In this document: positions 39,474 through 52,765 of the stretch, piece by piece
How the letters are laid out: every line of letters starts with the position of its first letter
Numbering within the stretch: position 1 is the stretch's first letter
Position numbers and translations under genes: made by a program
The notes under the pieces: generated by a model
The model's database searches: none
What the model was told of the DNA's origin: nothing
The model's input: the letters and a program-made list of their open reading frames with translations, nothing else
Assembly: GCA_937912005.1 (NCBI GenBank)
Contig: CALDOX010000014.1
Location: 205,186 to 269,185, forward strand
Length of the DNA stretch: 64,000 bases
Reading direction: 5' to 3'
From: an uncultured Alphaproteobacteria bacterium
Lineage (GTDB): Bacteria; Pseudomonadota; Alphaproteobacteria; CAAGCB01; CAG-977

Positions 39474-39550
39474 GCGCCCATAGCTCAACTGGATAGAGCA
39501 TCTGACTACGGATCAGAAGGCTGAGAGTTCGAATCTTTCTGGGCGCGCCA
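39474..39550 (+). tRNA. tRNA-Arg(ACG)
   Basis: GCGCCCA acceptor, anticodon loop CTACGGA (ACG), T-loop GTTCGAATC, CCA end. Confidence 0.9.
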
Positions 39551-40089: not shown

Positions 40090-40434
40090 TTATCCCGTTT
40101 CAAGCCCTTTCGCAAAGTCTTTTCGTGTTTCCACGTCAAAAATATCCTGAAACGCTATCTTGGTTTTAACGACCGTCAGCGTTTGGAACGTAAGGTCAAT
40201 ATCAGTAATCATACCCGTCTTTGTGATGTAAGCGTCCTTGTCGTAATACGTTACGGAAACAAGGTCGTGTCGCCGAAGGCTCTTTAACTTTTCGGACAAG
40301 GCTTCCGTTTCATCTTCGGACAGTTCTTTTTTCGGTTCCGAAACGCGCTGTTTTTCCAATATCATTTGGTAATACTCGGTCAAAGCGTTGAATGGCAGAA
40401 ATTGACGGGCGCGTTCCTCTTTACTCGCCGCCAT
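40090..40434 (-). CDS. YolD-like protein (UmuD-analogue accessory of Y-family polymerases)
   Basis: Size (~114 aa) and sequence pattern of the YolD-like family; start overlaps the polymerase stop (ATGGCGGCGAGTAA). Confidence 0.55.
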   Translation of the reverse strand: MAASKEERARQFLPFNALTEYYQMILEKQRVSEPKKELSEDETEALSEKLKSLRRHDLVSVTYYDKDAYITKTGMITDIDLTFQTLTVVKTKIAFQDIFDVETRKDFAKGLETG

Positions 40435-41689
40435 TGTGTCCTCCGATCAACTTGTTTCGCACACGCGCCGTCGCTTTGTCCGTATAACTCATTCCTCGAA
40501 GCAAAGCGTTTTTCCCGAATTTTTGCTTGATCGCCAAGACAGCCTCTTGCATTTTCCTCTCTTTCTCGTCTTCTCCCTTTTTGGAAAACAAATCCGGCTG
40601 TAATGCCGCGTGATCTTCGTCAACAATGTTCAGAAAACAGATGGACAGTTTGCGAATGGGGGCTGTCCGGCGCGTCGTTCGGCGATAAATGCTTTCAAAC
40701 TCTTTGACGAGCTTATCATAAGAGGACGTCTGTTCGGACAGCCGCTCCGAGCCGCCGGTTGACGGCGCAACATCGCGGGATTATCCGACCCCCAGAGAGA
40801 TGCCGGAAGCGACCATATGCTTTTCAATCAGTTCGAGGGAAAGCATATCGACCATTTCTTTCAGGCAAATCAAAGCGTCTTCAAACGTGTAATCGGAAAA
40901 CAGGATTTGACTGTTCGATAAGGAGTTCGTCTTGGATTTATAAGCGTGAATATCCCTGATTTCGCAAGGCTCCCGCCCGTGCGCGTGGTCGATCAGAAAC
41001 TCCGCATTGATGCCGAACTCTTTATACAAAAGCCGTTCGTCGCAATGGGCGACGCCGTAAAGATCGTAAATTCCGTATTTTTCCAATCGGAAGGCTATTC
41101 CTCTCCCGATATTCCAAATATCCGTTATCGGACGGTGATGCCACAGCGTCTGCTCAAACGCTGGAATATCCAAATATCCGATATGGTCGGGAATGTGCTT
41201 AGCCGTTATATCCAAAGCGACTTTCGCCAGAAAAAGGTTCGTTCCGATTCCCGCCGTCGCGCAGATTCCGGTTCGCTCCATTACGGCGTTCATCAGCATT
41301 ACAGCCATTTCTTTCGGCGTTTTATGATAAATGTGCAGATAATTGGTCGCGTCAATGAACACTTCGTCAATCGAATACGGGTGAATGTCGTCCGGGGCGA
41401 CAAAGTTCAGATAAGTGCCGTAAATGTCCGCGGACACTTCCATATACCGTTTCATACGAGGCAGAGCTGTAATGTATCGGACGTTTTTCGGAATTTCAAA
41501 AATGCGGCAACGGTTATGTATTCCCAAATCTTTCATCGCCGGAGTGATCGCCAGACAGATTCCGCCGCGTCCCCGCGCGGGATCGGCAACGACAAGGTTC
41601 GTCTTAAACGGATCAAGACCGCGTTCCACGCATTCCACGGACGCGTAAAAAGATTTCAGGTCGATACACAAATAAGTCTTGTCCGGCAT
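40421..41689 (-). pseudogene. Y-family DNA polymerase (UmuC/UvrX-like) interrupted by one in-frame TAA at 40781-40783
   Basis: N-terminal 302 aa carry Y-family palm/finger motifs (LCIDLKSFYASVE, FIDATN). The same frame continues past the TAA to the characteristic C-terminus KQKFGKNALLRGMSYTDKATARVRNKLIGGHN. Confidence 0.7.
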
Positions 41690-41735
41690 ATTTTCCTCCG
41701 AATCTGACGGTATCAGATTCGTCGGTCAGAAACAA

Positions 41736-41750
41736 GAACAAAAAGAGAAC
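41736..41750. promoter_or_regulatory. alphaproteobacterial LexA box GAAC-N7-GAAC upstream of the polymerase-yolD operon
   Basis: gaacaaaaagagaac about 47 bp upstream of the polymerase start codon on the minus strand. Confidence 0.45.
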
Positions 41751-41775: not shown

Positions 41776-42002
41776 TCTTGATTGTCAATTCCCTCCGCCT
41801 AACGGAAGAAAAACGGTTTCCCCGACTTTCGCTCCAGTGTCGTTGCAAGCCGAGGGCGATACCCCTCCGTTTTTCTTGGAATGACAATCGCTTTCTTCTC
41901 TCCGACGAAGCACCTCGAAAGGGTTTCAGGCGCGATGCCAAAAACCCTTTAACAAGTGCTTTTTACAGAGAAGGAGCTTTCAATATGACTGATAAATTCG
42001 AC
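41776..42002 (+). repeat. structured leader repeat copy 1 (long imperfect hairpin 41778-41889, second hairpin 41918-41950, RBS, first 6 codons of ardC)
   Basis: About 90% identical to 45482-45706; arms TTGATTGTCAATTCC / GGAATGACAATCG; aaagggttt...aaaccctt hairpin. Confidence 0.7.
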
Positions 42003-42857
42003 ATCATCGAAACCGTTTCAAATACCATCATCGAACGCTTGGAAAACTTTTCCGGCGAATGGGAAAAGCCGTTCATTTCCTCTTTTGCCCGGAACATCAC
42101 GACCAAAAAGGCTTATCGCGGCATCAACATTCTGATTTTGAACTTTGCCGCTTTGTTCAACGGTTTTTCCTCGTCCGTTTGGGGAACTTATCGCCAATGG
42201 CAGGATAAAGGCTATCAGGTCAAGAAAGGCTCAAAGGCGACGACCATCGTTTTCTGGAAGCCGCTTTCGTATAAATGCGAAGTCGAAAACACCGAAACAG
42301 GCGACATCGAAGAAGTCGAAAATCAGGCTTTTGTCGCCCGTGCTTATTCCGTGTTTAACGGTTCGCAAGTCGAGGGATTCGGCGAAGACATCGAAAAAAC
42401 CGAATTTAGCGTTGAAAAGGACGTGATGGCGTTCTTTGAAAACACGGACATCACATATTTTTACGGCGCGACTTTGGCAGGCTACGACCCGAAAAACAAT
42501 GTTGTCTTAATGCCGGAAAGAAAAGACTTCAAAACGGAAACCGGCTTCGTTTCGACTTTGGCGCACGAAACAATCCACGCGACCGGACACAAGAACCGCT
42601 TAAACCGGGATATGAAAGGCCGTTTCGGAAATGAATCCTACGCCTTTGAGGAACTGATCGCCGACATCGGCGCGGGATTTGTCGCCGGATATTTGGGTTA
42701 TGACTACCAATTCAGCAAAAACAACCTTGCCTACTTAAAGTCGTGGCTCAAGGTTTTGAAGAACGACAAAAAGGCGATTTTCAAAGCCTGCTCCGAAGCG
42801 CAAAAGGCTTTTGACTATCTGCTGACATTCCAGGAAATCGGACGGGAAGCGGCTTGA
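41985..42857 (+). CDS. ardC: ArdC-like antirestriction protein (N-terminal ssDNA-binding domain plus zincin-like metalloprotease)
   Basis: N-domain pattern WGTYRQWQDKGYQVKKGSKATTIVFWKP; HExxH motif HETIHATGH; AGGAG RBS; internal start at MTDKFD. Confidence 0.7.
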   Translation: MTDKFDIIETVSNTIIERLENFSGEWEKPFISSFARNITTKKAYRGINILILNFAALFNGFSSSVWGTYRQWQDKGYQVKKGSKATTIVFWKPLSYKCEVENTETGDIEEVENQAFVARAYSVFNGSQVEGFGEDIEKTEFSVEKDVMAFFENTDITYFYGATLAGYDPKNNVVLMPERKDFKTETGFVSTLAHETIHATGHKNRLNRDMKGRFGNESYAFEELIADIGAGFVAGYLGYDYQFSKNNLAYLKSWLKVLKNDKKAIFKACSEAQKAFDYLLTFQEIGREAA

Positions 42858-42887
42858 CCGCTTCCCTCAAAAAGAGGAGAAAGGACA

Positions 42888-43049
42888 ATGAAGATTGCAT
42901 TTTTCAGACTGACGGTTTACGGCGCGAACGGATACGAAAAAGAACATTTCGACTTTGACAGCAAGGCCGCCCAACTGTCGAAATTTTACGAACTGATCGC
43001 GCAGGGATACAAGCGCGACGATTTGGAAAAAACGACCTATTATTTCTAA
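42888..43049 (+). CDS. small hypothetical protein (53 aa) co-transcribed with ardC
   Basis: Strong RBS (aggagaaagg); followed by a perfect 9-bp stem hairpin at 43053-43079. Confidence 0.3.
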   Translation: MKIAFFRLTVYGANGYEKEHFDFDSKAAQLSKFYELIAQGYKRDDLEKTTYYF

Positions 43050-43310
43050 AAAATCGGGCGGAGGTTTCCGCCGCCCGATCCGTTCGCCCAACCACTCCAC
43101 AACACAGTTGCGCCCGAACGGATATATAAGAATATTTTAACAACAAACAAACTATTAAATAGAGATTTTTTCTATAACTATAAAGGGATTGTTTTTCGGG
43201 AAAATGTAACATCTAATTTTTTTAGCTTCTAAATGCGAATACGACTAAAAAAACGATTATTTTTAGAAATATAATATTATTTATTTAATATATATATGCT
43301 GTTTGAAAAA

Positions 43311-44078
43311 TTATAATACATATCTCGACACAGCACTGTTATATATAGAGCGCATTTCTGTAAAAACATTGTCGATAAACACTAGAACAGATACGTTTAT
43401 AAAAAAATTACTCTTATTTTTGTGCGATAAAACATCCAAAGATGGGAAATAAGGATGATGAACAACATTATGAGCTTTTTCGTTTCGTATTTTTATAACA
43501 TTTTCGTAAATTTTTTTTATATCAAGCTCATTCTTTTTTTTGCCAGCGTTTTCCATATATTTCCCATACCAAGAAGCCATATGTTTATTTTTTTCTTTTT
43601 TTTGTTTGAAAAAATCATACATATACATCGTCATAAACGTTCTTTTAAACTCTTTAAACGCTATATTGTTTACAGAAAGAAATTTTGCTTTTGAAAACAT
43701 CTTATATATATTAAAGCATGTTTTTATAAACTCTTCTTTTTTATTCCATATATCTTTCGTATCTTTCTCGTTCTTTATTTTTTCTATTACATCTTTTTGT
43801 ATTGAATATACATTATTGATTGCTTCTGACGAAGAAGATAACTTTTTTGATCCATGGATTATATTATATCGCACGTCTGGAAATTCTGTTCCGATCTCCC
43901 ATAATATGTTATCGATCTTTTGCTCCAATGTTCCAGTCATTTTTAATAAAAGAGATGTTAAAATATAATCATTTAAAGGGTATGTTGATATACTATAATT
44001 AGCATTATTTGACAACAATAAATATTCCGTCAAAAACACATCAATGCGTGTATCCATTATATTCTTTGAATGAATCAT
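43311..44078 (-). CDS. hypothetical protein with C-terminal R-x4-H motif (candidate HEPN / Abi_2-like RNase)
   Basis: IRNEKAHNVVHH near the C-terminus; start ATG overlaps the stop of the upstream DUF262 gene (ATGA); very AT-rich. Confidence 0.3.
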   Translation of the reverse strand: MIHSKNIMDTRIDVFLTEYLLLSNNANYSISTYPLNDYILTSLLLKMTGTLEQKIDNILWEIGTEFPDVRYNIIHGSKKLSSSSEAINNVYSIQKDVIEKIKNEKDTKDIWNKKEEFIKTCFNIYKMFSKAKFLSVNNIAFKEFKRTFMTMYMYDFFKQKKEKNKHMASWYGKYMENAGKKKNELDIKKIYENVIKIRNEKAHNVVHHPYFPSLDVLSHKNKSNFFINVSVLVFIDNVFTEMRSIYNSAVSRYVL

Positions 44079-45346
44079 CTTAAAAGCTTCCCATATATTT
44101 CTATTGAATCTCGAAGTCTCTCACGGATTGGACCTATTTTCCCAACAGATTTTGTGTCTTGAACAGAAGAACTTTTAGATGCAATTTTTTCTGATAATTT
44201 TTGAATACGATCATCGTCTAGATTAACATCTTTCTCTTTAAAGACAGACCAAAACAATAAGCCAAATATGTAGTAATCGGCTTCTGTTATTGTTTTAAAA
44301 TGAAGATCTCTTTTTATTTTTTTTAATAAACTACAAAACGGTGTCATACGTTTTATAAAATCATTTTTAAATTCACAAAAAAGATTCTTTCCTACATAAC
44401 GAGGATCCGCTTCATTAACAACATAACTAACATACGCTGATATGTATGCTTCAAAAGGTTTTAATTTTGAGCCATACCCCACAGCAACACGAAGCGTCAC
44501 AGGAACGGTATCTTTTATTAATTCAGATGCTTGGGCTGTAAACGCCAAGAAACGAGCAAAATCTATTTTTGAATTACCAATTTTTGCATCTGCTAATTCT
44601 GCAGGTTGGAAGAAATCTTTTCGTCCTGGATTTAGCCAATATAACGCCGCACGATTTTCCTCATTGGTTAAAGGAGTTCTTGATGATAGCGAGTTTATAC
44701 TTCTAAATATACGAGAAAAAAGAATCTTTTCATTGTCTGCTTTTCCTGAATTTTCTATTATGTATGAAAAACCGAGATAACAATTCTTTAAAAAAGAACT
44801 ATCAAAATCTATTTTTTTAAATTTTTCTATTAATTCGGCATCAACATCTGATGCCGTTAAGTCTGAAATCTTGATGTATTTTCCTGTTTCTAATAAATTT
44901 CGTTTTAGTTTTTCAATATTTTCTTCTTCTTCAAATTTTTGCTGTATTCGAGAGAAAGTCCACTCATAATAAGCGTTAACATCTTCCTCTTGTGTTGTAT
45001 CTTCTTCATTGTAATCTTCACTATACGCGAGATTTTCTATTTTTGGAGCAGGCTTAGGCCATATTCCCAAATAAGTTAACAAAATGGAACTTAATCTTTG
45101 TTGCCCATCCAATATATAATTAACCTTTTTCTCATTCTCTGTATTTGAGGATATTAAAACAGGAGGGACAAAGGACCCTTCTTTAATATCTATCATCAGT
45201 TGCAAAGCCATAGAAGGTTGCCAAACAAAATACCTTTGGTATGGTGGAATAACAATATCCTTATTAAGGATCATACTTATCCAATGCCAAAGAGAATACT
45301 CTCCATAATAAACTGTAAACTTATTCAAGATAAGAGCTCCTCCCAA
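44075..45346 (-). CDS. DUF262 (ParB/GmrS-like NTP-binding) domain protein lacking the DUF1524 HNH half
   Basis: Hallmarks VIPPYQRYFVW and ILDGQQRLSSIL; no H..N..N His-Me motif in the C-terminal half. Confidence 0.6.
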   Translation of the reverse strand: MGGALILNKFTVYYGEYSLWHWISMILNKDIVIPPYQRYFVWQPSMALQLMIDIKEGSFVPPVLISSNTENEKKVNYILDGQQRLSSILLTYLGIWPKPAPKIENLAYSEDYNEEDTTQEEDVNAYYEWTFSRIQQKFEEEENIEKLKRNLLETGKYIKISDLTASDVDAELIEKFKKIDFDSSFLKNCYLGFSYIIENSGKADNEKILFSRIFRSINSLSSRTPLTNEENRAALYWLNPGRKDFFQPAELADAKIGNSKIDFARFLAFTAQASELIKDTVPVTLRVAVGYGSKLKPFEAYISAYVSYVVNEADPRYVGKNLFCEFKNDFIKRMTPFCSLLKKIKRDLHFKTITEADYYIFGLLFWSVFKEKDVNLDDDRIQKLSEKIASKSSSVQDTKSVGKIGPIRERLRDSIEIYGKLLR

Positions 45347-45481
45347 TATACCTTATTATATCCTATTCGCTACATTTCATTTTTCAACAAAAATTTTTTC
45401 TCAAAAAAAATAGATTCTTAATGTATGCAACTTATTCGGGAATATTCTGCATATATGTCATTTTTTACCCTTCCCCTTACG

Positions 45482-45706
45482 TCTTGATTGTCAATTCCCT
45501 GCCGCCTGACGGAAAAAAACGGTTTCCCCGACTTTCGCTCCGGTGTCGCTGTAAGACGGGTGATACCCCTCCGTTTTTCTTGGAATGACAATCGCTTTCT
45601 TCTCTCCGACGAAGCACCTCGAAAGGGTTTCAGGCGCGATGCCAAAAACCCTTTAACAAGTGCTTTTTACAGAGAAGGAACTTTCAAAATGACTGATAAA
45701 TTCGAC
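45482..45706 (+). repeat. structured leader repeat copy 2 (same hairpins, RBS and first 6 codons)
   Basis: About 90% identical to 41776-42002. Confidence 0.7.
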
Positions 45707-46102
45707 CAAGCCTTAAACGAAATGGAAACGACGCTTAAACCGTTTATGCCGGCCAAGCAGGCTCAAACCCTCATCGAAAACTTGCACCGTTCCGAAGAAG
45801 CCGAAGCGTTCGCGGACATCATTCTGAATCTTGCCGAGCGTATTAAAGCGATGCCGCAAGTCTATGAAACGGACGGACAAGGCAAAAACGCTTTGGCTCA
45901 ACTGCACTATTTTGTCGGTTCTTATGATGCCTACATCGTCGAAAAAGACACCGCCGAAAAGCAAATTCAGGCGTTCGGTTGGGCAAGTTTCGGATACGGT
46001 TTCGAGGCCGGATACATCTCCGTTGACGAACTTTTAGAGCTTGCGGAATTGGATTTATTTTTCACGCCTTGCCCCGTCGGACAGGCTATCAGGGAGGATT
46101 GA
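45689..46102 (+). CDS. DUF2958-like protein (conjugative leading-region family)
   Basis: Pattern LHYFVGSYDAYIVE...FGWASFGYGFEAGYISVDEL...LDLFFTP. Confidence 0.55.
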   Translation: MTDKFDQALNEMETTLKPFMPAKQAQTLIENLHRSEEAEAFADIILNLAERIKAMPQVYETDGQGKNALAQLHYFVGSYDAYIVEKDTAEKQIQAFGWASFGYGFEAGYISVDELLELAELDLFFTPCPVGQAIRED

Positions 46103-46105
46103 ACA

Positions 46106-46378
46106 ATGCTGTATTGGGATTTAATCGAGGAGTTTTTACCCGACTTTGAAGAACGCGCTGACGTAAAGTTTGACACTTCCCTGTTTAACTTCATACACGG
46201 CGGGGACGTTCCGGAAGAGGACTTGCCCGCATTGAAGACTTTGGCAAAAAGCGGTTGTCTTTCGGAAGTGTTCTTTGCGATGGAAAAGCACTTGCTCAAC
46301 GAAGCGTTCGAGGCTTACTTTGAAACAAAAATCGTCCCTAAAATCTATTACAAACAGAAAGAATACGGCTCCGAATAG
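46106..46378 (+). CDS. hypothetical protein (90 aa)
   Basis: ORF immediately after the DUF2958 gene; acidic. Confidence 0.3.
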   Translation: MLYWDLIEEFLPDFEERADVKFDTSLFNFIHGGDVPEEDLPALKTLAKSGCLSEVFFAMEKHLLNEAFEAYFETKIVPKIYYKQKEYGSE

Positions 46379-46445: not shown

Positions 46446-46600
46446 AAGGGCGGTTGGGCGGGCGCGGTCAGATTTAGGGCTGATTTGAGGTGTTTTAAGG
46501 CTGATTCGCAAGGGATTGATTCTCTTGAGGGCTACTTTTTTGCAGGATAGCCTTTTCGTCCGACGAAAAGAGCGAAAAAAGCCCCGCCAACCCGCCCTTG
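46446..46600. other. candidate oriT: GC-rich inverted repeat pair flanking GGCTGATT-type direct repeats, upstream of mobC
   Basis: gggcggttgggcggg (46448-46462) versus cccgccaacccgccc (46582-46596); internal repeats agggctgatttgagg / aaggctgattcgcaaggg. Confidence 0.4.
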
Positions 46601-46644: not shown

Positions 46645-47016
46645 TTGAACGACTTTATTGCGAGGCTAAAAATGCCAATGTTGCGTAAATCGTTCAGAAT
46701 AGAAAAAGAAATTTGGGACGCGCTTGTCGCCGAAAAACAATGTCCGTCCCGCCTGATCCGGTTGTTCATTCTTGCGGGGATTCATCAGATGAAGATCCCG
46801 CACTATGACGAAATCCTCCTGCTGACAAAGCTCGAAGAACAAGCCCGAAAGGTCGGCGTCAACACCAATCAAGCTGTCCGCGCTTTGAACACGACGTTGA
46901 TAAAAAAGCAATCTCTTGAAGAAAAAACTTTACGGGATTTACAGCAGGCTTGCAGAGAACTTCACGCGCTCCGAGAAAAAATCAACAGACTTTTGGCGGC
47001 GTATTATGGCGAATAA
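46645..47016 (+). CDS. mobC: MobC-family relaxosome accessory protein
   Basis: vGvNtNQavRaLN motif (VGVNTNQAVRALN); stop overlaps the relaxase start. Confidence 0.6.
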   Translation: MNDFIARLKMPMLRKSFRIEKEIWDALVAEKQCPSRLIRLFILAGIHQMKIPHYDEILLLTKLEEQARKVGVNTNQAVRALNTTLIKKQSLEEKTLRDLQQACRELHALREKINRLLAAYYGE

Positions 47017-47737
47017 ACGGAACTGGTTAGACGAACATATCCGGGGTATATACGTCAAACAGCAACGCTTTCCGGTTCACTATTCCCCTCCGGCAAGACA
47101 GAGGGCGACACTTTCTTTCAAAGTGCCGCCGCCGGAAGCTATGGTTAAAGTCGCTTTCTATGTCAAATCACTGCAAGGGGCGAAGAACATCGCTCATTAT
47201 ATCGCTCACGGTTCGGAGGGAATGGAAAAAGACGCCCGTGTTTATGACGACGAACGGCGACTGATCCCGACCGAGAAACTGAACGAAACGATAGACGCTT
47301 ATGATCTGGAACAGCGGCGGAAGAACGGGAACGCGATGGTTCACCTGATCGTATCTTTTCCCAAAAGAATGAACGTCAGCGAGGACGAAGCATACCGGTT
47401 TATTGAGCGGTATATGGAACCTTTCGCGGAAAGAGGGTATCGGTATTTATACGCCGTTCACACACATCAATCGGCAACGCACGGACACATTTTGTTGAAA
47501 ATGTCGAACGGACGGGAGCGGCTGAAACTCAAAAAGCCGCAACTTCAAATGCTCCGGCAACATCAGGTCGAAGTCGCCAAAGAGTTCGGTTGGGAGATGC
47601 AGGCGACACGTTTTCAGGACAGAGATTTCTCTCTGACGCAGATGGTTATTCCGCGCAAGCACAAAACGATCCGGCAGCTTCGCGAACTTCACGAACGGAG
47701 AAGATCGGTGGAACAAACGGAGGAACGGGAAAGGTAA
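47006..47737 (+). CDS. MobA/VirD2-type relaxase (relaxase domain only, 243 aa)
   Basis: Histidine triad VHTHQSATHGHIL; N-terminal region AHYIAHGSEG; internal start MANKRNW coupled to mobC. Confidence 0.6.
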   Translation: MANKRNWLDEHIRGIYVKQQRFPVHYSPPARQRATLSFKVPPPEAMVKVAFYVKSLQGAKNIAHYIAHGSEGMEKDARVYDDERRLIPTEKLNETIDAYDLEQRRKNGNAMVHLIVSFPKRMNVSEDEAYRFIERYMEPFAERGYRYLYAVHTHQSATHGHILLKMSNGRERLKLKKPQLQMLRQHQVEVAKEFGWEMQATRFQDRDFSLTQMVIPRKHKTIRQLRELHERRRSVEQTEERER

Positions 47738-47805
47738 AAACGACTTGGCTTTTTGATAAAAATAATCACAATTTGTTGTATGTTAAAAAATGTATTTATT
47801 GGTCA

Positions 47806-47831
47806 AGCAGGGAATTATCCCTGCTTTTTTT
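47806..47831 (+). terminator. terminator/attenuator-like hairpin upstream of the tail-fibre gene
   Basis: agcaggg-aattat-ccctgc followed by a T7 run. Confidence 0.5.
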
Positions 47832-47844
47832 ATTTGAGGTAAAA

Positions 47845-49506
47845 ATGACGGTAAGTACAACAACAAACAAAGTTGTTTATATCGGGAACGGAATTGCAAC
47901 TACATTTGCAATCCCGTTTCCTTTTTTGGAAAGGGAGCATTTAAAGGTCAGACAACTTTTAAACAACGTGCAGACGGAAAGGACGGATTGGACGGTTTCG
48001 GGCGGGAATATGGTTTTTGCGACGGCTCCGGCGGATGATGCGCAAATCGTGATTATGCGCGAAGTGCCGTTGACGCAGGAAACTGACTATCGGGAAAACG
48101 AGGTTTTGCCGGCTGAAACGCTTGAACGCAATTTCGACAAGCTGACAATGCAGATTCAACAGCTGAAAGAGCAGGCGGAACGGGCGGTAACGGTGGACTT
48201 ATTTTCAGCTTCTGATCCATCTGTATTAGTAGATAAAATTGAAAAACTTTACCGTATCAAAGACGAGATAGTTGTTGCGGCTCAAAACATCTCATCGTTG
48301 ACGACAGTTTCGGACGATATTTCTTCTATTCATACCGCGGCTACTCACATATCTGCTATTACTGATGCGATAAATCAAGCAACACAAGCCTCCAGCAGTG
48401 CCAATAAAGCCCGAATCTGGGCAGAAGGAACGGATGAGGAAATCGTGTCTGTCAATGGAATCCATTCCGCAAAAAGATGGGCAGAAATTATGGATACGAC
48501 GGAATTTAACAAAACGTACACAGCAAGCCGTGTTTTGTCTGTTCCACAAAACATAAAAATTTCTCTGACGGCAGGAGTTGTAAAACTAACTGCAGGAAGT
48601 GTCGTTTATGATGGGAACGGTAACAATATGAGGCTTCAGCAAGACCTTTCTTTAAACGGTGGATTTCAAGGAAAAGGACTGCTGGTTGTTTCAAAGACGG
48701 GTCATTTGTGGGAAATGGATTTAACACATGTCTTTTCCCAAACAACAGAACCGGCGGCTCCGTATCTTTGGTATAATCCGAACACCAAGATAACAAGATT
48801 TAACGATAATTTGGGAACGGTCGGCGAAGTATATTTGCCATGCGCGCAAGTTGTCTATTTGGGCTCGTCTTATGTTCAGATAGATCGAGTATTCAACGGA
48901 ATCGGTTGTATTGCTTCAACCGTATTTGTTTTGCCTCATATCAAAGGACAGGCCTTACAATCAATCAGTTCGGACGGTACTTGTTCTAATACGATATGGG
49001 AAACAAGTGGTGTTCAGACAGTCGCAGTAAATAATACGCTTCATCTTGTTGTTGATGCGAACGGGATGCTGAATACGAAAAGCACTTTTAATGTTTTTTC
49101 CGATATTGGTTTCACAGACTTAGGAATAGTCGTTGTCAGCGGAGGATCGATTGTTTCGATGCCGAGCAGAAGTATAGATACAATCAATACATATCCAACC
49201 TCTGAACTGGCCAAAATGGGAATGCCCGGAAGCAAAAGGCTTATTGTAGTAACAGGTGCTTCTTTCGCAACCTACATCGCCCCAGCAAACAGATTTTTTA
49301 CAATTTCCGGAACAGTTGAGGTGAATAGTTTTGCCTTTGTGGATATTGAGAACCTCTCAACTTTTATCAAAGATTCCGATCATTCTTATACGTTAGGCTC
49401 AACTATATCCGCCTATATTCCGGCAAAAGCGGGAGAAAGCGTCCAAATCGCTTACGGACAAACTACACCAGTTGTTTCATTTATCTACGCAGAAGGAGAA
49501 GAATAA
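47845..49506 (+). CDS. phage tail-fibre protein with T7 gp17-type N-terminal (tail-attachment) domain
   Basis: N-terminus KVVYIGNGIATTFAIPFPFLEREHLKV...DYRE resembles T7 gp17 (VLTYQLDGSNRDFNIPFEYL...DYRF); Ala/Ser-rich shaft repeats; beta-rich C-terminus; GAGG RBS. Confidence 0.6.
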   Translation: MTVSTTTNKVVYIGNGIATTFAIPFPFLEREHLKVRQLLNNVQTERTDWTVSGGNMVFATAPADDAQIVIMREVPLTQETDYRENEVLPAETLERNFDKLTMQIQQLKEQAERAVTVDLFSASDPSVLVDKIEKLYRIKDEIVVAAQNISSLTTVSDDISSIHTAATHISAITDAINQATQASSSANKARIWAEGTDEEIVSVNGIHSAKRWAEIMDTTEFNKTYTASRVLSVPQNIKISLTAGVVKLTAGSVVYDGNGNNMRLQQDLSLNGGFQGKGLLVVSKTGHLWEMDLTHVFSQTTEPAAPYLWYNPNTKITRFNDNLGTVGEVYLPCAQVVYLGSSYVQIDRVFNGIGCIASTVFVLPHIKGQALQSISSDGTCSNTIWETSGVQTVAVNNTLHLVVDANGMLNTKSTFNVFSDIGFTDLGIVVVSGGSIVSMPSRSIDTINTYPTSELAKMGMPGSKRLIVVTGASFATYIAPANRFFTISGTVEVNSFAFVDIENLSTFIKDSDHSYTLGSTISAYIPAKAGESVQIAYGQTTPVVSFIYAEGEE

Positions 49507-49895
49507 TGTATAAAGGCCATCAGAACGGAAAATTAAAGTTCATTTGGAATGAAAAAGAAAAACAACCGTCTTTGATAAATTTGGAAAAAGTGGAAATAGA
49601 CAATGAACATACCATCAACGATTATGTTCAATACCACAAAGAGTTTATTCTAAAAACGGATTATCCTGTTCCTGTGGAAAACGAAAACATTCGTCAGAAA
49701 CGCCAAGAGCATTTTGTTTCAGAAACGGATCCTTTGAAGTTTGATATGGATGAACTCCGTGTTCGTTATGAGCAAGAAGCAGATGAACAAAAGAAAACAG
49801 AATTTTTAAAAAAGATAGGTCTGTTGCGGGAAGAATGGTTGATTAAAAAAGATCGAATTCGTGAGGAGTTTCCTTTTATAGAAAACAAACCTTAA
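49506..49895 (+). CDS. hypothetical protein (possible tail-fibre assembly/chaperone); overlaps the fibre stop (TAATG)
   Basis: Translational coupling to the fibre gene. Confidence 0.3.
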   Translation: MYKGHQNGKLKFIWNEKEKQPSLINLEKVEIDNEHTINDYVQYHKEFILKTDYPVPVENENIRQKRQEHFVSETDPLKFDMDELRVRYEQEADEQKKTEFLKKIGLLREEWLIKKDRIREEFPFIENKP

Positions 49896-51076: not shown

Positions 51077-52765
51077 TTATCCCCATTGCTTTTTTATCCA
51101 ATTAAATAAATCGTTTTCCCGTTCTTTAATAGTAACTTTATTCCAACCTTTTTTCTTAATTAAATCAGAAACCTCACGTTCAATAAATAAATCTCTATAT
51201 GCGTCTTTTTTCTCATCCGGTTTTTTATCTTGAAGAGAGCTATTCTTAGAGGCTTCTAAGATCAAAAGATTACCCAATCGATGTTTATAGATTTTATCAT
51301 TTTTTTCTGCATCAAAAGAATCCACGCAGTGTTCTGTATCTGCTTTTGGGAAAATATGCTCAATAGTATCTTTTACAGGAGAAGTTAAAATTGCATTCCA
51401 AGTTTTTTTCTGTATTTGCTTTGTTTTCCGCGCTTTTTCAGCTAAATATAATTCTCGTTTATAAAATAAGTATTTTAATTCTTCATCCCAAGTTTCATAT
51501 AAATTTGATTTTTTTAAAAACTTAATAGCTTGTTCAATATTACAATCTTCAGAAAGTTTCTGTATTTGTTTTATAGCATCTTTGTATTTAATTACTCCTT
51601 TAATGATATTCCGTCCAATGACAATAAAATCACCTACTTTAAAACGAGCATCTTTCTGTTCAAGGCCATAAATTTTAAACGTTGATTTCTCCCATTCCGC
51701 AATCAATTCTTCCTTTTGATCATGAGTATAATTGGACAACCAAATACATAAAGCTAAAAAGCGAGGCTGTTGAATACGAATTAAAAATCTAATGCTATTA
51801 TTTATTTCTAATTCTTTTAATTTAGAAATATATTTCTTTAATTCTCTTGCTATTTCTATAGCATTTGAAGATTTTCCTTCACTTTTTTTCATTAAGTATA
51901 AAACACTGTCTTCCTCTTTTAAAAAACGGCTGGTTGTATCTTTTAAAGTAGCAAGATAACGAATTGCCATTGAACCAAATTCTTTATTTTCACCTAATTC
52001 ATCATAGATAGAAGACCAAATTTTATGCATAGATTCAATTTGAGATTTTGTTGCGGTTTTTTCATAAAGAAGCCCCATCATCATACATTTTAATCTATCC
52101 AACCATTCAACGGGGAGACCGCGAAAATTAAGAACTTCAAAGGTTCTATAGACTACACTTTCATCATCAATGGTATGCAATATAAAAGAGAGTTTGTTTT
52201 TTAATAAAGCATATAAATCAAGAATCTTTGCATTATTTTTGTTTATCCATTTATCAACGAATTCTTGACATAACTGTATTGAATTTTTTAATAACCGATC
52301 TGAAAGTCTTTGAATATCGTCATCAGTATTATTAATTGTTCCTTTTCTTAGCCATTCAGAGAATATTTCATGTTTATCGTGGTTCATTTTTAAAATAGGC
52401 GTTGTGTGCTTATCTGATTTTACAAGAATCCGTCCTAATTCATTTTTATCTTCCGTATTATCCTCTAACTTTAAGTAGATTGCTTTCAATAAAATCAACA
52501 AAGTAGTGATTCTTTGTTGTCCGTCAACGATATCATAAATTGTATATTCTGTTGTGCTGCCTAAATTTTCTTTTTCTTTGTGTTTTAAACAAACCAATGT
52601 AGCCATGAAATGTTCAGAACGTTTATGCTCATAAACATTTTCTATATCAGAAAACAATGCCTTGATTTGCTTCTCTTCCCAACTATAAGCTCTTTGATAT
52701 TCTGGAATCGAAAAAAGGCGTTCATTTAACAGCTGACTTAAAGTATACAATTCCGGTTTTAACAT
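51077..52765 (-). CDS. GmrSD-family type IV restriction endonuclease (DUF262 plus DUF1524)
   Basis: N-terminal IPEYQRAYSW and VDGQQRITTL; C-terminal His-Me finger EHIFP...LGNLLILEASKNSSLQDK. Confidence 0.7.
   Translation of the reverse strand: MLKPELYTLSQLLNERLFSIPEYQRAYSWEEKQIKALFSDIENVYEHKRSEHFMATLVCLKHKEKENLGSTTEYTIYDIVDGQQRITTLLILLKAIYLKLEDNTEDKNELGRILVKSDKHTTPILKMNHDKHEIFSEWLRKGTINNTDDDIQRLSDRLLKNSIQLCQEFVDKWINKNNAKILDLYALLKNKLSFILHTIDDESVVYRTFEVLNFRGLPVEWLDRLKCMMMGLLYEKTATKSQIESMHKIWSSIYDELGENKEFGSMAIRYLATLKDTTSRFLKEEDSVLYLMKKSEGKSSNAIEIARELKKYISKLKELEINNSIRFLIRIQQPRFLALCIWLSNYTHDQKEELIAEWEKSTFKIYGLEQKDARFKVGDFIVIGRNIIKGVIKYKDAIKQIQKLSEDCNIEQAIKFLKKSNLYETWDEELKYLFYKRELYLAEKARKTKQIQKKTWNAILTSPVKDTIEHIFPKADTEHCVDSFDAEKNDKIYKHRLGNLLILEASKNSSLQDKKPDEKKDAYRDLFIEREVSDLIKKKGWNKVTIKERENDLFNWIKKQWG

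Follow-up and report, generated by a model that had tools for sequence, protein, structure and literature searches.

To our knowledge, single-strand promoters for zygotic anti-defence expression have been characterised only in the enterobacterial IncF and IncI plasmids, in which new classes of them were reportedly recognised only in 2025. In F, Frpo1 and Frpo2 are 92% identical, lie about 5 kb apart and each drive a leading operon from ssDNA (PMC9849209). Non-homologous hairpins, of class 2 and class 3, are carried by pESBL and F, class 2 being a similar pair that precedes klcA and ardA (Wen et al. 2025, PMC12672017). Leading-region islands of anti-defence genes have been described with oriT and a umuC-like operon as their boundaries (PMC11541004). 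Here we describe a non-coding leader present twice in a 64,000-nt stretch of DNA from an uncultured alphaproteobacterium (the window, hereafter, is the whole of that stretch). It is a conserved cassette of the cis-regulatory kind, associated with the two operons of one such island that have the transferred strand as their template. Because of this genomic context, the best supported reading is that it represents a new class of single-strand-active promoter and leader for anti-defence genes, to which we would give slightly less than an even chance.

A leader duplicated ahead of two genes

The leader repeat lies at 41776-42002 (copy A) and 45482-45706 (copy B), where the original prediction had placed it, and the copies share 94.7% gapped identity over 228 columns by blastn, about 95% where ~90% had been given. 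Identity is 98% in the 3' 149 nt (41854-42002 versus 45558-45706) and 82%, gap-free, in the 5' 77 nt. As delimited by repeat alignments, the non-coding part of copy A (41776-41984, plus strand) stands 5' of ardC and is conserved in 39 loci, and that of copy B (45482-45688, plus strand) stands 5' of a DUF2958-related gene. The repeat then runs through the start codons (41985 for ardC, 45689 for the second gene) and ends, on the plus strand, with the first six codons of each (41985-42002 and 45689-45706), and both proteins open with MTDKFD, a shared start that had been foreseen and that the repeat alignment confirms.

ardC (41985-42857, plus strand) encodes a 290-aa protein with an ArdC N-terminal domain and a zincin metallopeptidase domain; its predicted identity is upheld by Pfam (ArdcN and MPTase-PolyVal), and it falls in a PHROG anti-restriction family. 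The second gene (45689-46102, plus strand; phrog_5203) is followed by a gene for a 90-aa protein (46106-46378, plus strand). Its 137-aa product, which had been labelled DUF2958, matches no Pfam model, even at E<=10; a profile search with its family, however, returned many relatives, ~48% identical, that carry PF11171/DUF2958, and the label is acceptable at the superfamily level though not by a direct Pfam match. The AlphaFold model of the protein has a mean pLDDT of 64. In L009, L041 and L045, relatives of the 137-aa protein (~44-48% identity) are found in phage-like early regions, with SNF2 helicase, RadC or terminase modules as neighbours and with the leader absent. Since relatives sit in such regions, an early host-takeover or anti-defence role is suggested for the 137-aa family.

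The search for further copies, by protein-guided look-ups and two pattern scans, brought the number of leaders to 46, of which 36 are distinct; the 39 loci that hold them stem without exception from gut metagenomes and from uncultured Alphaproteobacteria of the gut or rumen. Every one of the 46 lies directly 5' of ardC or of the 137-aa DUF2958-related gene, and none in any other position. Over all fetched DNA, nhmmer profiles of the two hairpins of the leader, D1 and D2 (see below), revealed no further copy other than a lone remnant of the first half of D1 in L012 (2034-2088; E = 7.6e-7), ~1.7 kb upstream of the ardC leader. The leader has no match in Rfam at the gathering score and chance-level hits only (E>3) at a relaxed E-value; none among the 72,556 plasmids of PLSDB, F (NC_002483) included (blastn, word size 11); and none in a phage collection (blastn) or in the viral contigs of IMG/VR (pattern scan).

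The two-copy layout is kept in all elements, and the DNA from ardC to the second copy differs in nearly every one. In the window this stretch holds a GmrSD_N/DUF262 gene and a gene for a 255-aa protein (43311-45346, minus strand; Pfam), a strand that is not readable from the transferred strand. The slot (window 42858-45481) was compared in L001, L002, L004, L020, L024, L030 and L036; it is empty in L002 and contains elsewhere the DUF262/GmrSD_N gene with the 255-aa gene, an AAA_14/DUF4143 gene, or unrelated genes for products of 250, 311, 335, 399 and 923 aa, on either strand. The divergence of each leader from a leftward operon, part of the original prediction, holds within the window but is not kept in related elements. 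The leaders do not group by downstream gene and the two copies of L036 are 100% identical, a pattern from which it follows that the copies evolve in concert. This pattern and the variable cargo are also what is expected of a recombination module, that is, of direct repeats that mediate the exchange or deletion of cargo, or stem from repeated gene conversion, and play no regulatory role. We regard this as very improbable: it leaves unexplained the hairpins, the compensatory changes, the pairing of the Shine-Dalgarno (SD) sequence and the conservation of D2 above neutral, all described below, and ardC, which homologous recombination between the direct repeats would remove, is kept in all elements.

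Candidate oriT and the bounds of the island

IncP/VirD2-type relaxases nick after ATCCTG. A candidate oriT core is found at 46542-46570 on the minus strand, which reads 5'-CTTTTCGTCGGACGAAAAG (inverted repeat, 46570-46552)-GCTATCCTG/C, the slash marking the predicted nick between 46543 and 46542. The layout is that of a 9-bp inverted repeat, a 9-nt spacer and, as a nick motif of IncP/VirD2 type, CTATCCTG/C; related elements conserve it, and in them the inverted repeat shows a compensatory change from TTTTCG...CGAAAA to TTTTTG...CAAAAA. Nine bases, CTATCCTGC, are those of the RP4/IncP nick region; the RP4 oriT sequence, CTTCACCTATCCTGCCC, has a 100% match in IncP plasmids. On the IncP strand that bears the nick motif, traJ and traI are on the 5' side and transcribed away from oriT, and the other side is the leading one. 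The polarity relative to the relaxase genes is alike in the window, where a mobC-like gene (46645-47016) and a MOBP-like relaxase gene (46916-47737), together spanning 46645-47737 on the plus strand and assigned by Pfam, point away from oriT on the lagging side. The relaxase also matches NCBIfam MobP1, below the curated cut-off.

Because the IncP-type motif sits on the minus strand, the minus strand is in all probability the one transferred, with the nick site read from the motif only. The relaxase side would thus enter a recipient last, and the 90-aa gene, the DUF2958-related gene, leader B, the cargo, ardC and leader A would enter first. The plus-strand genes of the island have the transferred strand as their template and are directed towards oriT. 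Within 46916-49895, the relaxase ORF is overlapped at its end by an ORF of 638 aa that matches no family, and the relaxase region is arranged otherwise in L002 and L004. Just past the mobile region, at 51077-52765, are a full-length GmrSD (DUF262 + DUF1524) restriction gene and a glycosyltransferase gene; this GmrSD is a second DUF262-family gene, less than 6 kb from that of the island.

The distal boundary (40090-41749, minus strand) comprises yolD (40090-40434) and a Y-family polymerase gene (40781-41689), both assigned by Pfam, and a GAAC-N7-GAAC box (41735-41749), which we take to be the alphaproteobacterial form of the SOS box; an HU gene is likewise found on the minus strand on this side of copy A. 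This box is conserved in L002, L016, L028 and L012 and is found, together with the palindrome GAATCTGAcggtaTCAGATTC (41700-41722), between leader A and the start of the polymerase gene. The polymerase ORF is of 302 aa in the window and of 422 aa in the syntenic L002, and may be truncated or frameshifted in the former. A tRNA-Arg gene (39474-39550) adjoins the start of the island; an integrase and a repeat of the 3' end of this tRNA gene were looked for and not found.

Both leader-borne genes are thus located within a leading-region anti-defence island that extends from oriT to umuC/yolD and whose anti-defence genes are templated by the transferred strand. Islands of this kind (Samuel et al. 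2024, PMC11541004) have the same oriT and umuC-like bounds, anti-defence genes likewise templated by the transferred strand, and candidate single-strand promoters inside; the island of the window differs in being very small, with two such operons and a variable slot for defence-type cargo on the other strand. In F, ssb, psiB and the anti-restriction gene also point towards oriT, as the leading genes of the window do. A close likeness is to the class 1 elements, Frpo1/Frpo2 of F and ssi1-3 of ColIb-P9/pESBL. These too are non-coding and nearly identical to one another, are separated by a few kb of the leading region, and each precede an operon that is directed towards oriT and has the transferred strand as its template, with very stable hairpins in that strand and establishment or anti-defence functions downstream. 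In our reading, a small mobilizable element of gut Alphaproteobacteria would carry the leader as a cis-acting expression cassette of its leading-region anti-defence island, a view that we hold tentatively and, on balance, not quite at the midpoint between doubt and belief.

Two hairpins, one of which holds the ribosome-binding site

In copy A, D1 (41780-41889, plus strand) is a long, branched hairpin of 110 nt, found by folding and supported by four compensatory pairs, and D2 (41890-41977, plus strand) is an 88-nt hairpin with two internal loops, found by folding and near-invariant in sequence; in copy B, D1 spans 45483-45593, D2 45594-45681 and the SD 45675-45680. The arms TTGATTGTCAATTCC and GGAATGACAATCG pair as had been proposed, and they make up the base of the branched D1; the second hairpin of the original prediction, aaagggttt...aaaccctt, does exist, but as the tip of the larger D2. 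Folded as RNA and as ssDNA, both strands of the leaders are more stable than shuffled sequence throughout (z -3.4 to -4.7; 0 shuffles as stable), in keeping with the structured leader that had been proposed. As ssDNA, the transferred (minus) strand reaches -44.9 and -39.2 kcal/mol (z -4.5 and -3.4) and, in a sliding DNA-fold scan, leader A is the most stable 230-nt stretch of the minus strand between 38 and 49 kb, comparable to the oriT region. Of the two strands, it is the minus strand that gives the better fold in 28 of 30 distinct copies, which is weak evidence, the copies being related; moreover, the counts of wobble pairs and of A.C mismatches are balanced between the strands and favour neither.

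Minus-strand hairpins that are among the most stable of the leading region could also serve as signals for the initiation or processing of single strands, priming complementary-strand synthesis in an ssi/sso-like manner or stalling it, with their position relative to genes being secondary. Frpo-type elements have been reported to prime synthesis, and ssp2 of F to act as a roadblock to it. Every copy of the leader, however, is at a fixed distance from an SD and a start codon, the repeat enters the coding sequence, and priming from this position would convert only the short segment between leader and oriT; a role of this kind is, in our estimation, improbable.

The covariation that a conserved structure should leave is found in D1 but not in D2. 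Four compensatory pairs (A-U to C-G, U-A to C-G, G-C to C-G and C-G to U-A) are distributed over four helices of D1, three of them following a single split, that between two clades; identity within this narrow family is at least 81%, and the covariation thus comes from few independent events. Overall, pairing holds in 99% of cells, versus ~45-55% when the partners are slid. The helices of D2 have no two-sided changes among the collected copies, because the D2 sequence is nearly invariant and hence uninformative in this respect. Between the window and L020, identity amounts to 73% in D1, 94% in D2, 80% over the nucleotides of ardC and 58% at the 4-fold degenerate sites of ardC. Since D2 is at 94% where the 4-fold sites of ardC are at 58%, the primary sequence of D2, loops included, is by this measure evidently under strong constraint.

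The inverted termini of D1 might suggest a MITE with terminal inverted repeats, and the leader also contains minus-strand ORFs of 71 and 75 aa and an ATG, at 41881, that opens an ORF of 23 codons. Neither a mobile nor a coding origin of the sequence retains any appreciable probability, and the two are refuted together: indels of 1, 2, 4 and 6 nt between the copies break all frames, and profile searches show no dispersed copies, just the two fixed positions and the half-D1 remnant. The same indels fall inside the small opposite-strand ORFs, which had rightly been set down as artefacts. The ORF that starts at 41881 (41881-41952, reading MTIAFFSPTKHLERVSGAMPKTL up to its stop) runs from the 3' arm of D1 across the anti-SD arm of D2; its ATG is conserved (GTG in two copies), but 1-nt indels where D1 meets D2 leave its frame unconserved.

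In the sense RNA of both copies, D2 buries the SD. Its basal helix is formed by the 5' arm CTTTCTTCTCT and the SD region AGAGAAGGAG (41967-41976), so that the ribosome-binding site is paired within a conserved helix; the invariant G.U pairs of this anti-SD helix are A.C mismatches on the minus strand. In a transcript with the entire D2 the SD is locked at -41 kcal/mol, and in one that starts inside D2 it is largely free. These features bring in the main rival to a single-strand promoter, an ordinary mRNA 5' leader that acts in translational control. According to this alternative, which we consider rather unlikely, the sense RNA is made from a conventional or activator-dependent promoter, and D2 sequesters the ribosome-binding sites as a joint translational switch for both genes. 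Opening of D2 would fall to ribosomes that cross the anti-SD arm or to a factor acting in trans, be it a protein, a small RNA or processing of the RNase III type, and D1 would serve for stabilisation or as a platform for binding. An mRNA leader accounts for the SD within a -41 kcal/mol hairpin, for the invariant G.U pairs and for a repeat that includes the SD and runs past the start codon through the first codons; moreover, the loops of D2 are as invariant as its stems, which suggests a bound factor. It is less easily reconciled with the lack of an Rfam match and of covariation in D2, with a minus strand that is the better folder in nearly all copies, and with a candidate alternative pairing and an upstream ORF that are not conserved. 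The leaders of plasmid genes that sequester the SD (for example the traJ leader, controlled by FinP, or those of repA/repZ) are alike in that the ribosome-binding site is enclosed in a long hairpin, which must open for translation. In the leaders of the window, in contrast, we found neither an antisense promoter nor a conserved leader peptide or alternative pairing, and one leader serves two unrelated genes. Two further devices of RNA-based control were considered and rejected: a terminator/antiterminator formed by the G-run and the C-runs of D1 has a stem of only 3-5 pairs and is not conserved, and clade 2 has lost the pairing between the anti-SD arm and GAAGAAA of D1.

Promoter signals and a possible route of expression

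No sigma-70-like promoter was found on either strand inside the leaders of clade 1, the clade of the window, nor within 150 nt upstream in 20 of 30 distinct flanks. The upstream flanks are mutually unrelated, and some of them end in terminators: hairpins like those of intrinsic terminators lie directly 5' of the leader in L004 (3810-3833) and L011 (1528-1555), where they would insulate the leader from upstream transcription. Unrelated flanks and the lack of a conserved promoter upstream of or inside the clade-1 copies both argue against an ordinary mRNA leader. For clade 2 the situation is different. Its leaders (for example L004, 3933-3941) have on the plus strand an extended -10-like element, TGGGATAAT, in the 3' arm of D1 and just upstream of D2, as an mRNA leader would have it; judged from its sequence, TGGGATAAT could be an ordinary extended -10 promoter that puts D2 at the 5' end of the mRNA. 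The element is absent from clade 1, and the same place on the folded minus strand reads as a TTGACA box. A structured regulatory 5' UTR, the alternative offered with the original prediction, fits the burial of the SD and the conserved G.U pairs equally well, but a clade-1 promoter that would place it in a transcript was not found. Two other candidate promoters were rejected, namely a GG-N10-GC of sigma-54 type within the D1 3' arm, which does not rise above chance and whose -12 element is poor, and an antisense promoter near the start codon, with 3/6 matches at best in the -35 hexamer.

On the minus strand, an invariant TTGACA is present near the base of the D1 stem (41788-41783 in copy A, 45494-45489 in copy B), flanked by stem pairs that covary. 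No -35/-10 pair was found within one stem of the leader. The sole -10-like hexamer is TAAAAA, in the 5' arm of D2 of the transferred strand, half of which lies in an internal loop and which is without the conserved final T. If D1 and D2 stack, the spacer between TTGACA and TAAAAA is of 15-16 nt and spans the helix junction. Frpo2 of F also reaches just 8/12 in the same promoter scan. The class 2 hairpins of pESBL and F are another close counterpart: they too are a similar pair before two different anti-restriction genes and are not homologues of Frpo, and in F a -10-like hexamer is at an internal loop. The F hairpin, however, has both TTGCAT and TAAGAT on one arm of one stem, whereas the leader has only a clear -35; and the start sites of F were mapped by 5'RACE, whereas that of the leader is predicted from sequence.

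For the single-strand promoter that we favour, the following course of events may be envisaged. A nick at oriT near 46542 would send the minus strand into the recipient, 5' end first, carrying the two leaders and the genes between oriT and leader A in the order given above. On the single strand, each leader would fold into the adjacent hairpins D2 and D1, which together would make a promoter specific for single strands, and ardC and the DUF2958-related operon would be transcribed ahead of complementary-strand synthesis. The common SD and first codons would give both genes an equal start of translation. In a full-length sense RNA, produced for instance by read-through of dsDNA, D2 would lock the ribosome-binding site, and the genes would be silent once the element is established. 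The most speculative step is that RNA polymerase may combine the TTGACA that lies at the foot of D1 with TAAAAA, which is unpaired in part within the stacked helix of D2. A start near 41916-41920, which depends on a weak hexamer without its final T and on an unproven geometry, would yield a transcript without the anti-SD arm and hence translatable. Nicking at 46542, activity on ssDNA and the start site are those parts of the model that we infer. In its most specific form, as a single-strand promoter with a translational gate, the model has a -35 in one hairpin beside a partly melted -10 in its neighbour, a start inside D2 and later dsDNA transcripts that are not translated; this version is doubtful, and should be held as unlikely. 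If correct, the anti-defence genes would be on only in the minutes after entry, by means of two independent locks. In any event, the single-strand promoter and the mRNA leader are not mutually exclusive.

The Frpo-like character first proposed for the leader thus draws on its context: the oriT, the template strand, the bounds of the island, the conservation, the covariation of D1 and, in most copies, the absence of a conventional promoter upstream. It does not extend to homology with Frpo or ssi elements or to a -35/-10 pair in one stem. The differences from class 1 are several. The leader has no sequence similarity to Frpo or ssi; it consists of two adjacent hairpins of ~110 and 88 nt, in place of one of ~330 nt; it is without the promoter pair in one stem; one of its hairpins holds the ribosome-binding site, and the repeat continues into the coding sequence; and it belongs to a small MOBP-like mobilizable element of a gut alphaproteobacterium. 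If the single-strand promoter reading is true, the leader would form a new class within a kind of element already known, and would do so in a new group of hosts; an element of uncultured gut Alphaproteobacteria that shares this genomic logic without homology would make the strategy a general one. It would also hint at how the control of transcription and of translation combine to confine expression to the entry phase. The leader would then be a compact, testable module of ~210 nt. It also flags a small island whose variable slot for cargo may be mined for new defence and anti-defence genes.
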